From NCBI RefSeq assembly GCF_003334335.1, contig NZ_QOWQ01000020.1: a stretch of 64,000 nucleotides of DNA; one strand, given 5' to 3'. This document shows positions 52,311-52,831 of the stretch, piece after piece (the stretch's first letter is position 1; every line of letters starts with the position of its first letter). A program made the translations under genes and the position numbers. Origin of the DNA: Escherichia coli. GTDB lineage: Bacteria; Pseudomonadota; Gammaproteobacteria; Enterobacterales; Enterobacteriaceae. A model generated the notes under the pieces. It searched no databases and was not told where the DNA came from. It saw only the letters and a list, made by a program, of their open reading frames with translations.

Positions 52311-52336
52311 AAACAAAAAACCCCGCCGAAGCGGGG
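52311..52336 (-). terminator. intrinsic terminator of the tRNA operon
   Basis: Minus-strand hairpin CCCCGCTTCGGCGGGG followed by TTTTTTGTTTT, just after proM. Confidence 0.7.
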
Positions 52337-52344
52337 TTCAAAAT

Positions 52345-52421
52345 TGGTCGGCGAGAGAGGATTCGAACCTCCGACCCACTGGTCCCAAACCAGTTGCGCT
52401 ACCAAGCTGCGCTACTCGCCG
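52345..52421 (-). tRNA. proM: tRNA-Pro (UGG)
   Basis: 77-nt reverse-complement sequence CGGCGAGUAGCGCAGCUUGGUAGCGCAACUGGUUUGGGACCAGUGGGUCGGAGGUUCGAAUCCUCUCUCGCCGACCA; cloverleaf and UGG anticodon evident. Confidence 0.93.
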
Positions 52422-52463
52422 AAATACTGCTTTTTGAATTTTTAGTTCAATTCTTTAAAGTCG

Positions 52464-52550
52464 TGGTGCGAGGGGGGGGACTTGAACCCCCACGTCCGTA
52501 AGGACACTAACACCTGAAGCTAGCGCGTCTACCAATTCCGCCACCTTCGC
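52464..52550 (-). tRNA. leuT: tRNA-Leu (CAG), long variable arm
   Basis: 87-nt sequence GCGAAGGUGGCGGAAUUGGUAGACGCGCUAGCUUCAGGUGUUAGUGUCC...CCUCGCACCA. Confidence 0.93.
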
Positions 52551-52570
52551 ATTGTCACAACTTCTAATAA

Positions 52571-52647
52571 TGGGGTGGCTAATGGGATTCGAACCCACGA
52601 CAACTGGAATCACAATCCAGGGCTCTACCAACTGAGCTATAGCCACC
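52571..52647 (-). tRNA. hisR: tRNA-His (GUG) with extra 5' G
   Basis: 77-nt sequence GGUGGCUAUAGCUCAGUUGGUAGAGCCCUGGAUUGUGAUUCCAGUUGUCGUGGGUUCGAAUCCCAUUAGCCACCCCA. Confidence 0.93.
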
Positions 52648-52704
52648 ACTACAAATCTTGTTACGCGGTATTACTACCACCGCAGCTCAAGCGCCGGGAC
52701 TAAA

Positions 52705-52781
52705 TGGCGCGCCCGACAGGATTCGAACCTGAGACCTCTGCCTCCGGAGGGCAGCGCTCTATCCAGCTGAGCTACGGGCGC
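52705..52781 (-). tRNA. argX: tRNA-Arg (CCG)
   Basis: 77-nt sequence GCGCCCGUAGCUCAGCUGGAUAGAGCGCUGCCCUCCGGAGGCAGAGGUCUCAGGUUCGAAUCCUGUCGGGCGCGCCA. Confidence 0.93.
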
Positions 52782-52802
52782 TTAGCGCCGTTTCGGGGGT
52801 GG

Positions 52803-52831
52803 ATAATACGGACTTCCCACCCCTCTGTCTA
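52803..52831 (-). promoter_or_regulatory. candidate promoter of the argX-hisR-leuT-proM operon
   Basis: Minus strand TAGACA, 17-nt spacer, TATTAT, then GC-rich discriminator CCACCCC about 15 nt before the tRNA-Arg 5' end; A/T-rich tract upstream. Confidence 0.55.

Follow-up and report, generated by a model that had tools for sequence, protein, structure and literature searches.

A four-gene tRNA operon of Escherichia coli and the open reading frames that overlap it

Genes and transcription signals at the locus

The DNA under study is a 64,000-nucleotide stretch of Escherichia coli sequence (contig NZ_QOWQ01000020.1 of assembly GCF_003334335.1), hereafter the window. The region was scanned for tRNA genes with ARAGORN which called exactly four tRNAs, all on the minus strand. 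The same four were matched independently by the Rfam family RF00005 (gathering score 29 bits; E values 3e-13 to 6e-9), each match being full-length (model positions 1–71) and above the family threshold. The first gene in the direction of transcription, argX for tRNA-Arg(CCG), occupies 52705–52781 (Rfam 64.1 bits; K-12 b3796), is 77 nt in length with an encoded CCA, and has G73 as discriminator base. The hisR gene for tRNA-His(GUG) lies at 52571–52647 (69.7 bits; b3797); ARAGORN assigned it to 52571–52646, and the gene comprises 77 nt when the genome-encoded G-1 at 52647 is counted, as is also the case in the K-12 annotation. It is followed by leuT for tRNA-Leu(CAG) at 52464–52550 (48.5 bits; b3798), an 87-nt class II gene with a long variable arm, and by proM for tRNA-Pro(UGG) at 52345–52421 (65.8 bits; b3799) which spans 77 nt with an encoded CCA and a mature 5′ end of C. 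The anticodons are ccg, gtg, cag, and tgg, the genes terminate in GCGCCA, CCCCA, CACCA, and GACCA, respectively, and all four tRNAs possess intact cloverleaves and encoded CCA ends. The names, order, and minus-strand orientation proposed for these genes in the initial annotation are borne out by the ARAGORN calls and Rfam matches, by the K-12 annotation, and by identity to K-12 at 800 of 801 positions. A permissive Rfam search of 51800–53300 also returned rsmX, PrrF, SpF41, STnc180, Trp leader, istR, and other families. These matches scored 18–26 bits compared to gathering scores of 41–90, all were located over the terminator or the tRNA genes, and they were dismissed as chance.

The locus was compared with 66–67 loci of Enterobacteriaceae that span all four genes and that were gathered with an exact-match search pattern. 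The gene order was the same in every one. The hisR sequence was identical in 66 of 66 species, part of hisR being fixed by the search pattern, and proM was identical in 65 of 66. The argX gene was identical in 18 of 66 species, with the others differing mainly by a G to A change at the discriminator base, and leuT ranged overall from 85 to 90 nt with a variable arm that changes in length. Among complete E. coli genomes the locus was present in 5,426 of 5,426, at least 80% of its 801 nt being kept in one place in 5,334, and the 801-nt sequence was 100% identical to that of many genomes. Queries specific for argX located a median of one place per genome, and therefore the operon is single-copy. 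The flanking ORFs in the window encode a 461-aa permease and a radical-SAM maturase, and the thrP and aslB neighbors also are found in FORC 064 and K-12.

The core promoter, pArgX, was placed at 52803–52831 on the minus strand by a consensus scan, by conservation, and by reference to published work (PMC5137449). The −35 hexamer TAGACA (52831–52826) is separated by 17 nt from the −10 hexamer TATTAT (52808–52803), and 10 of 12 positions fit the consensus. This was the only sigma-70-like match in 52100–53000, and as shuffled sequences gave a mean of 0.7 matches the count is no better than chance, and it is conservation and published work that speak for a real promoter. Sixty-one of 66 species fit the pattern T[AT]GAC[AG]-16/18-TAnnnT, the remaining five deviate by TGGACA or by a spacer of 19 nt, and in 59 of 61 species 21 nt separate the −10 hexamer from argX. 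Downstream, the discriminator, start site, and 5′ leader were assigned to 52782–52802 (minus strand) from the cross-species alignment and published mapping. The GC-rich discriminator CCACCCCCG at 52802–52794 corresponds to CC[A/G][C/G/A]CCCCG in 58 of 61 species. The leader is 12–14 nt long, its sequence CAACGGCGCTAA is almost invariant across species, and it is removed by RNase P. In its near-consensus hexamers and G+C-rich discriminator, pArgX has the sequence features of stringently controlled promoters of the rrn P1 type. Published cloning coordinates position +1 at 52793–52795, ~10 nt past the −10 hexamer: primer mapping gives 52793, and a footprint description in which the first nucleotide is C followed by G fits 52795. 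The promoter that was suspected initially, TAGACA-17-TATTAT with a GC-rich discriminator, coincides with the published pArgX and is conserved. In K-12, pArgX has been studied experimentally and is inhibited by ppGpp/DksA, yet is activated by DksA alone (PMC5137449).

One nucleotide in this region merits separate mention. Position 52793 is A in the window and C in K-12 (3982363), the sole difference between the two sequences, and it is situated at, or at most 2 nt from, the transcription start. The 52793-A allele was found in ~102 of 5,426 complete E. coli genomes (about 2%); FORC 064 and ML35 are examples of strains that carry it. This minority allele alters a base at or beside the start site of pArgX, where the initiating nucleotides influence promoter kinetics, and the published K-12 pArgX kinetics may transfer inexactly to it.

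The thrP-argX intergenic region 5′ of the −35 hexamer (52832–52883, minus strand) was inspected by cross-species alignment and terminator scan. It follows the thrP stop codon (52884–52886) and includes conserved blocks, among them an A/T-rich tract, AATTTATTTAAAAA, at about 52850–52837. Judged from consensus, this tract is similar to UP elements or to upstream activating sequences; a UAS that precedes pArgX has been mentioned (PMC5137449). The scan found no terminator between the thrP stop codon and the promoter, and transcription of yifK(thrP) reads through into the tRNA operon in Salmonella (PMC3879156).

At the other end of the operon, the proM 3′ trailer and a Rho-independent terminator extend over 52309–52344 on the minus strand, as defined by scanning, folding, and conservation. 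The trailer AUUUU precedes a hairpin (52339–52318) in which GAACCCCGC and GCGGGGUUU form the stem around a UUCG loop, and this is followed by the U-run UUUUUUGUUUU. The stem of 9 bp, six of which are G-C pairs, together with the U-run has the makeup of an intrinsic terminator. Its predicted folding energy is −16.4 kcal/mol (z −4.36), and none of 200 shuffled sequences folded equally well. The element is nearly invariant across species that carry the operon, homology stops directly after it, and a Rho-independent proM terminator has been described (PMC5291269). The hairpin energy, the conservation, and the published terminator agree with the earlier description of this signal as strong. The sequence scan detected no internal terminators within the operon which accordingly has one promoter and one terminator, both conserved in more than 60 species of Enterobacteriaceae.

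Spacers and maturation of the transcript

The argX-hisR spacer (52648–52704, minus strand) is 57 nt in length and holds the candidate helices H1 and H2 that are considered below. Its A/U-rich single-stranded tail at 52663–52648 probably contains the RNase E site E1, reported to be distal from the argX 3′ end (PMC3985628). The hisR-leuT spacer (52551–52570, minus strand) consists of 20 nt, is A/U-rich and unstructured with a fold energy of 0 kcal/mol, and measures 16–25 nt depending on the species. Published fragments of 117 nt for E2–E3 and 199 nt from 5′-hisR to E3 (PMC3985628) would place site E2 just past the hisR CCA. The leuT-proM spacer (52422–52463, minus strand) is 42 nt long and includes a small conserved hairpin in which GAAUU (52453–52449) pairs with AAUUC (52440–52436). 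The block GAATTGAACTAAAAATTCAAAAAGCAGTA is conserved, and in Salmonella arizonae the hairpin shows the compensatory change GAGTT/AACTC. Site E3 is ~12 nt past leuT and E4 lies 3, 4, and 15 nt before proM (PMC5291269; fragment sizes in PMC3985628), the RNase E positions being derived from the fragment sizes in PMC3985628. When the spacers were folded singly, only the terminator stood out (z −4.4), and the argX-hisR spacer gave z = +0.16. As energy lends no support to a structure in the argX-hisR spacer, H1 and H2 are argued from conservation and covariation.

These features suggest a course of expression in which sigma-70 RNA polymerase would start at pArgX (52793–52795) and make a single transcript, ~480 nt long, with its 3′ end at the hairpin and U-run past proM. 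Minor additional transcription would enter from upstream thrP, because no terminator separates thrP from the operon. The promoter would be under growth-rate and stringent control, with ppGpp and DksA together acting as inhibitors. RNase E would cut the A/U-rich single-stranded parts of the spacers at sites E1–E5, after which RNase P would form each mature 5′ end and leave G-1 on tRNA-His, and exonucleases would trim the 3′ ends of the Arg, His, and Leu tRNAs. The 3′ end of proM would arise instead from an RNase E cut right behind CCA, the terminator being lost in the same cut. This outline follows the RNase E and RNase P pathway that has been worked out for the operon (PMC2190699, PMC3985628, PMC5291269, PMC9841416): in K-12, Northern blotting and cleavage assays in vitro demonstrated co-transcription and processing by the two enzymes (PMC2190699, PMC3985628, PMC5291269), and site E5 directly follows the proM CCA such that cleavage there takes off the entire terminator (PMC5291269).

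The four-tRNA operon in which the Arg, His, Leu, and Pro genes form a single transcript is well known, essential, and already established. The hisR gene is the sole tRNA-His gene of E. coli, single-copy and essential, and the transcription unit is essential owing to hisR and proM (PMC11480407). The leuT gene is one of four tRNA-Leu1 loci (PMC2190699). The operon is the only source in the cell of tRNA-His, tRNA-Pro(UGG), and tRNA-Arg(CCG), and supplies one of the four tRNA-Leu(CAG) copies. The present analysis establishes which genes are present and how they are ordered, identifies the sequence signals as conserved, and shows that the ORFs are not; promoter regulation, the processing pathway, and essentiality are taken from the literature.

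Overlapping reading frames and the identity of the operon

Two ORFs in the six-frame list overlap the operon. The first, of 64 aa, spans 52455–52649 on the minus strand, starts with a GTG that overlaps the hisR G-1, and runs through hisR, the spacer, and leuT. The second, of 82 aa, spans 52197–52445 on the plus strand and reads, in antisense, across the start and 5′ region of aslB, the terminator, and proM. The initial annotation had listed both and regarded them as non-proteins translated from tRNA genes and spacers. Both are present at 52455–52649 and 52197–52445, and the absence of family matches, of RefSeq coding sequences, and of conserved frames upholds the view that neither is a protein. 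The description of them as translated tRNA and spacer sequence is apt for the 64-aa ORF and holds only in part for the 82-aa ORF, whose first 148 nt (52197–52344, about 60%) are outside the tRNA genes and which reads antisense to them.

Neither ORF matched Pfam or NCBIfam even at E values up to 10, no coding sequence is annotated at either position in RefSeq/PGAP or in K-12, and the exact 82-aa sequence was absent from a collection of 15 billion proteins. Across 67 species neither ORF showed the conserved frame expected of coding DNA. In 49 of 67 species the frame of the 64-aa ORF meets a stop between hisR and leuT, and it passes through leuT in only seven of 67; counterparts of the 82-aa ORF range from 33 to 125 aa, and the length of 82 aa recurs in five of 67 loci. 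In most related species the frames are disrupted, as the spacers differ in length by numbers of bases not divisible by three. On sequence grounds, the six-frame ORFs of at least 40 aa that overlap the operon are chance open frames and not genes.

Two different accounts of the region were weighed against this interpretation. Both ORFs are open and have start codons, gene finders predicted the 64-aa ORF on 351 contigs, and its translation has been deposited under CRL88460.1 as a hypothetical protein, so one or both might be real small proteins that share DNA with the tRNA genes on the same strand or on the opposite one. CRL88460.1 is, however, an automatic call and no proof of expression, and the GTG of this ORF overlaps the tRNA-His G-1 within a rapidly processed precursor and has no ribosome-binding-site spacing. 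Moreover, spacer and variable-arm lengths shift by 1–2 nt between species which a coding frame would not tolerate. Together with the missing family matches and annotated coding sequences, the stops in the His-Leu spacer, and the erratic length of the antisense ORF, these points make genuine proteins exceedingly improbable. Alternatively, the cluster might be a tRNA array that arrived with a phage or a genomic island, or might consist of pseudogenes, and not be a native operon. Phages and island borders often harbor clusters of tRNA genes, and eight of 20,922 places were plasmid-borne partial matches. Nevertheless, the thrP/aslB synteny is kept in E. coli, the same gene order recurs in about 70 species of Enterobacteriaceae, the locus is single-copy in every genome as gauged by the median for argX-specific queries, 800 of 801 bases match K-12, and all four tRNAs are far above the Rfam threshold. 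An origin of this type hardly deserves credence. We consider it virtually certain that this stretch represents E. coli's own chromosomal argX-hisR-leuT-proM operon, expressed as one sigma-70 transcript, and that the overlapping ORFs are spurious; no evidence of substance speaks against this.

The result is mainly of value as quality control, in that a textbook stable-RNA operon was recognizable from raw sequence. It also illustrates that six-frame ORF tracks create false genes over tRNA clusters, one of which, the 64-aa ORF, entered public protein databases. Stringent control and RNase E direct entry, for which the operon serves as a model, are already established.

Candidate helices behind argX and comparison with known systems

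Two conserved candidate helices were observed in the argX-hisR spacer. In candidate H1, the 3′ end of tRNA-Arg, GCGCC (52710–52706), pairs with GGCGC in the trailer (52695–52691). Among 50 distinct sequences the pair 88:104, between the discriminator and a trailer base, was A:U in 38, G:C in 11, and G:U in one; A:C never occurred and the position was always paired. The G:C state was found in at least four clades with seven Fitch changes on a rough tree built from 375 nt of flanking sequence, and RNAalifold yielded H1 unprompted. Candidate H2 is a hairpin of 52684–52678 with 52670–52664 around the loop GUAGUAA that folds in all species except that of locus L044, and its apical extension covaries with a score of 0.190 compared to 0.106 ± 0.023 in shuffles (0/500 as high). 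For H1 with basal H2, 98.6% of cells were paired compared to 24.6–45.6% in slid controls, and the covariation score was 0.127 compared to 0.072 ± 0.006 in shuffles (0/500 as high), values that are to be read with the provisos that H1 rests on one variable pair, that the structure was derived from the same sequences, and that relatedness inflates covariation scores. No H1-like trailer motif was present after hisR, leuT, or proM. The literature searched held no prior account of argX trailer helices, and older papers may mention dyad symmetry; the "ArgX" of Lactococcus is an unrelated sRNA.

Other pairings were considered for the same RNA. When applied to tRNA-Arg with the spacer, RNAalifold missed the cloverleaf and paired GAGCUGCG of the spacer with tRNA positions 6–13. 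This pairing was not adopted because both sides are invariant and a G-to-C change in E. coli 536 would break it. Under constraints, the lowest-energy fold in E. coli contains a helix between leader (GCUAA/CGG) and trailer (UUAGU/CCG). The leader side of this helix is invariant and the trailer side unconserved across species, and it was kept only as a competitor of H1.

A tentative and rather doubtful interpretation is that the 57-nt spacer is a conserved two-helix module in which H1 mimics an RNase P RNA contact and thereby enforces the order of processing. The trailer GG[C/U]GC would pair, in pre-tRNA-Arg, with the discriminator and with the CC of CCA, in imitation of the G292-G293-U294 contact of RNase P RNA. 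Until cleavage by RNase E at E1 and removal of the trailer by exonucleases, H1 might then delay formation of the mature 5′ end or protect CCA, and the order of processing would be set for the first tRNA of the operon. If this were correct, H1 would be an added cis-acting element in a much-used model substrate of RNase E and RNase P. A parallel is provided by pairing of the leader with RCCA which acts as an RNase P anti-determinant (PMC9433436). Candidate H1 likewise pairs R73-C74-C75 in the precursor, these nucleotides are the partners of G292–U294 in the L15 loop of RNase P RNA, and the argX trailer motif GG[C/U] would be a similar partner. In the published cases the 5′ leader (N-1, N-2) pairs with RCCA and lengthens the acceptor stem (PMC9433436), whereas in argX the partner would be the 3′ trailer, 10–12 nt downstream, and any effect on RNase P is putative.

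The covariation in H1 need not reflect a selected helix, and we assess the chance that it does not as somewhat better than even. The two sites are 15 nt apart in the window (about 13–16 nt across species), such that any short-patch recombination moves both and would link them; alternatively, template-switch mutation at a quasi-palindrome would copy a change between the arms of the DNA inverted repeat. Just one of the five H1 pairs varies, and the tree that underlies the count of G:C switches is the rough one from 375 nt of flanking sequence. Furthermore, the constrained fold in E. coli favors the competing leader-trailer pairing (−52.1 compared to −43.1 kcal/mol), H1 contributes only about 3 kcal/mol beyond the cloverleaf, and Kime et al. 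take the region upstream of E1 as single-stranded. Against this view, a standard pair was kept in 50/50 distinct sequences with no instance of A:C, RNAalifold found H1 without prompting, and the four invariant pairs adjoin a loop that is free in sequence and length. The G:C state also occurs on clade-specific spacer backgrounds, as in Enterobacter where G:C and A:U haplotypes share the same H2 apical insertion, a pattern that speaks for recurrent double changes in place and against the import of a single haplotype.

The arrangement of the operon itself closely follows that of known systems. The operon of E. coli K-12 MG1655 (b3796–b3799; NC_000913.3 3982375–3982811) has the same genes, order, spacers, terminator, and flanks, and all gene boundaries map base for base across the 800 of 801 identical positions; the two differ in C at 3982363 for A at 52793, and the operon is on the minus strand in the window. 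The hisR operon of Salmonella enterica shares the gene order, a strong promoter directly 5′ of argX, the lack of a terminator after yifK, and RNase E-dependent processing of a ~500-nt precursor (PMC3879156; loci L023 and L065). It differs in a −35 hexamer of TGGACA instead of TAGACA, in a tRNA-Arg discriminator A and trailer U compared to G and C here, and in spacers that diverge in sequence and by 1–3 nt in length.

The glyW-cysT-leuZ transcript gives rise to a 3′ external spacer that works as an sRNA sponge; the argX spacers are not known to play such a part. The glyW-cysT-leuZ and metT-leuW-glnUW-metU-glnVX operons are similar to the present one in that each is essential and has one promoter and one intrinsic terminator (PMC2190699, PMC11480407), and in that their A/U-rich spacers are cut by RNase E before RNase P acts (PMC2190699), but their tRNA content is different. 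Compared to other tRNA operons of E. coli, proM is unusual in that its 3′ end is produced by a single RNase E cut (PMC5291269).

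The tRNA operon and its boundaries

ARAGORN, run on positions 51500-53800, returned exactly four tRNA genes that lie head-to-tail on the minus strand as the initial annotation had proposed: tRNA-Arg(ccg) argX (52705-52781), tRNA-His(gtg) hisR (52571-52646), tRNA-Leu(cag) leuT (52464-52550) and tRNA-Pro(tgg) proM (52345-52421). The Rfam tRNA model agreed, with full-length matches of 64.1, 69.7, 48.5 and 65.8 bits, respectively, at a gathering score of 29. The predicted span of hisR requires one correction as mature tRNA-His takes in G-1 at 52647. The remaining Rfam matches in the region fell far under their thresholds, overlapped the terminator or the tRNA genes, and were rejected. 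Elsewhere in the window, Rfam matches above the gathering thresholds were obtained on the minus strand for GlmZ (48518-48724; 218 bits), Erse sRNA (14915-15166; 319 bits) and naRNA4 (7692-7769; 92 bits). GlmZ is the neighbor expected past aslA in E. coli.

The RefSeq annotation places tRNA-Arg, -His, -Leu and -Pro between thrP and aslB, and the gene names assigned initially match those of K-12 MG1655, namely argX (b3796), hisR, leuT and proM (b3799). Many E. coli chromosomes match the 801-nt query at 100% identity. Each of the 5,426 complete E. coli genomes contains it, with ≥80% of its length at one place in 5,334. A single scan of a species-representative genome collection with the hisR-leuT junction as pattern yielded 72 loci, all from Enterobacteriaceae, and the order Arg(CCG)-His-Leu(CAG)-Pro(UGG) was found in every locus that spans the four genes. 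The locus is a textbook operon that was rightly read from the sequence. The transcription unit is essential owing to hisR and proM (PMC11480407).

A second, tandem tRNA-Pro(UGG) is present in the operon on a contig labeled Chryseobacterium sp. 18061 (locus L040) and in one locus that is cut at the 5′ end. The conflict between the Chryseobacterium label and the Enterobacteriaceae-type flanks suggests that L040 is a contaminant or a mislabeled assembly.

A strong terminator had been proposed for the operon. The terminator scan gave a sole match, after proM, a stem at 52339-52318 followed by a T-run, which folds at -16.4 kcal/mol (z = -4.4). The sequence GAACCCCGC-UUCG-GCGGGGUUUUUUGUUUUCUG is near-invariant across species and similarity stops directly downstream. 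The assignment holds. The scan detected no terminator-like site in the interval 52832-52886 that separates the promoter from the end of thrP (stop codon 52884-52886), which is consistent with observations in Salmonella where transcription of yifK (thrP) runs on into the tRNA operon to produce a 2.0-kb yifK-tRNA RNA (PMC3879156).

Reading frames that overlap the tRNA genes

Both ORFs flagged as spurious, one of 64 aa (52455-52649, minus strand) and one of 82 aa (52197-52445, plus strand), appear at these coordinates among the mechanically listed ORFs. Their description as translations of tRNA genes and spacers is accurate for the 64-aa ORF, which spans hisR, the spacer and leuT, but only partly so for the 82-aa ORF: the latter runs antisense, and about 60% of it, the first 148 nt, covers the terminator together with the 5′ region and start codon of aslB. 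No NCBIfam match was obtained for either ORF or for four shorter ORFs over the operon, no Pfam match for either even at E up to 10, and no CDS is annotated in RefSeq at either position. Across species, spacer lengths differ by amounts that are not multiples of three (His-Leu, 16-25 nt; Arg-His, 54-72 nt; Leu-Pro, 16-47 nt) and the leuT variable arm also differs in length. Of 67 species, 49 have a stop in the hisR frame inside the His-Leu spacer and only seven keep that frame open through leuT; the length of the antisense ORF varies between 33 and 125 aa. Both are chance ORFs and not genes, and the advice that they should not be annotated as proteins is upheld. The warning is of practical value because the exact 64-aa translation is already public as 'hypothetical protein AL505_150078 [Escherichia coli]' (CRL88460.1, NCBI), belongs to a 37-member cluster and was called on 351 contigs. 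The spurious protein could be considered for AntiFam-type filtering.

The mechanical ORF for aslB (50963-52228, minus strand; 421 aa) begins at TTG 52228, whereas RefSeq sets the start at ATG 52198 (411 aa) with AGGAG ahead of it. The ATG of the 82-aa ORF (52197-52199, plus strand) overlaps this RefSeq start codon on the opposite strand.

Processing and candidate structure of the spacers

Regulation, processing and essentiality are taken here from the literature, which for processing and for the operon promoter, pArgX, concerns K-12. RNase E starts processing at five single-stranded A/U-rich sites, mostly by direct entry: E1 in the argX-hisR spacer distal from argX, E2 directly after hisR, E3 about 12 nt after leuT, E4 just before proM, and E5 after proM (PMC3985628, PMC2190699). 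In K-12 the 5′ ends are matured by RNase P following the RNase E cuts, and a single RNase E cut directly after CCA both produces the proM 3′ end and detaches the terminator (PMC5291269).

Alignment of the argX-hisR spacer (52648-52704) revealed near-invariant blocks surrounding one variable segment. In candidate helix H1, the tRNA-Arg 3′ end G-C-R73-C74-C75 (52710-52706) can pair with GGYGC in the trailer (52695-52691). Escherichia, Trabulsiella, Siccibacter and some Enterobacter have G as the tRNA-Arg discriminator, and the other taxa have A. A G is matched by C in the trailer and an A by U. The 50 distinct sequences comprise 38 with A:U, 11 with G:C and one with G:U, and A:C never occurs. 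RNAalifold predicts H1 unprompted, and within the alignment compensatory change is confined to the discriminator-trailer pair. A rough neighbor-joining tree of flanking thrP (375 nt) gives about seven changes in the state of this pair, with G:C in at least four clades. As H1 has only one variable pair, with its sites about 15 nt apart, an appearance of selection could also arise through linkage or template-switch mutation. H1 contributes only about 3 kcal/mol on top of the cloverleaf, and leader-trailer pairing competes with it in E. coli.

Candidate hairpin H2, with the core GCGGU/ACCGC (52684-52664), folds in every species except one outlier (locus L044). An apical extension in 15 distinct long variants, which belong to Enterobacter- and Klebsiella-type species, has closing and innermost pairs that co-vary (AU/UA/UG/CG). 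Covariation in the extension scored 0.190 compared to 0.106 ± 0.023 in shuffles, none of 500 being as high, with the H1 and H2 structures derived from the same sequences used for scoring.

Because RNase P RNA reads the RCC end with G292-U294 and intramolecular RCCA pairing is a known anti-determinant for the enzyme (PMC9433436), pairing with the trailer GGY could delay tRNA-Arg 5′ maturation until the trailer is removed, or could instead shield the CCA end until that point. The location of E1 distal from argX fits this reading. Among the papers searched there was no description of H1 or H2, nor of this role for H1, and the spacer structure is regarded as a minor lead, not a finding.

In E. coli 536 (locus L075), positions 136 and 140 (window 52690 and 52686) carry a T-to-G and a G-to-C change, respectively, 4 nt apart in the H1-H2 linker, leaving both helices untouched. 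These changes presumably occur in most of the 74 genomes with <99% identity here, strain 536 being the one inspected. An alternative spacer-to-D-arm pairing suggested by RNAalifold was not adopted, as the second change would break it. The leuT-proM spacer (52453-52436, minus strand) contains a small conserved hairpin, GAAUU/AAUUC, inside near-invariant GAATTGAACTAAAAATTCAAAAAGCAGTA and between E3 and E4. The hairpin has the compensatory form GAGUU/AACUC in Salmonella arizonae (L023) and a G.U intermediate in several species.

The pArgX promoter and the allele at 52793

The promoter scan gave a sole match, TAGACA (52831-52826) and TATTAT (52808-52803) separated by 17 nt, which alone is not significant (one found compared to 0.7 expected by chance). 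The promoter is kept across species as T[A/G]GACA, 17 nt, TAnTAT, with an A/T-rich tract directly upstream of the -35 hexamer, and the -10 hexamer is followed by a conserved GC-rich discriminator, CC[A/G]NCCCCG, and leader, CAACGGCGCTAA. In K-12, pArgX drives all four genes and is inhibited by the stringent response; DksA alone activates whereas DksA with ppGpp strongly inhibits (PMC5137449). The promoter proposed from the sequence is credible because of this conservation together with the literature on pArgX, rather than the scan match itself. The thrP-argX intergenic region comprises conserved blocks and the A/T tract, which in sequence resembles an UP element.

The published pArgX fragment is 400 bp, '-265 to +135' (PMC5137449). 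Placement of both published primers on the window gave a SmaI-HindIII insert of exactly 400 nt (53058-52659), which sets +1 at 52793. However, the footprinting text describes the first nucleotide as C and the first two as C and G (PMC5137449), which suits 52795 better. The start is therefore stated as 52793-52795.

Position 52793 is +1 or +3 of the transcript. About 102 of the 5,426 complete E. coli genomes share the A allele. Of 57 distinct Enterobacteriaceae species sequences, 55 have C at the equivalent position. The only other sequence with A is locus L013, from the metagenome-assembled genome 'Proteobacteria bacterium OH_SBB_50', in which tRNA-Arg has anticodon GCG in place of CCG, an A20 to T change and a broken anticodon-stem pair. 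A20 is a major identity element for ArgRS, and the L013 gene probably reflects either a copy in decay or a fault of assembly. The A allele could alter the initiating nucleotide of stringently controlled pArgX. As regulation of pArgX depends on early initiation steps, the allele could matter and is noted as a minor lead, not a finding. It is the single difference in 801 bases between the window (A at 52793) and K-12 MG1655 (C at 3982363), in which the gene boundaries all coincide base for base.
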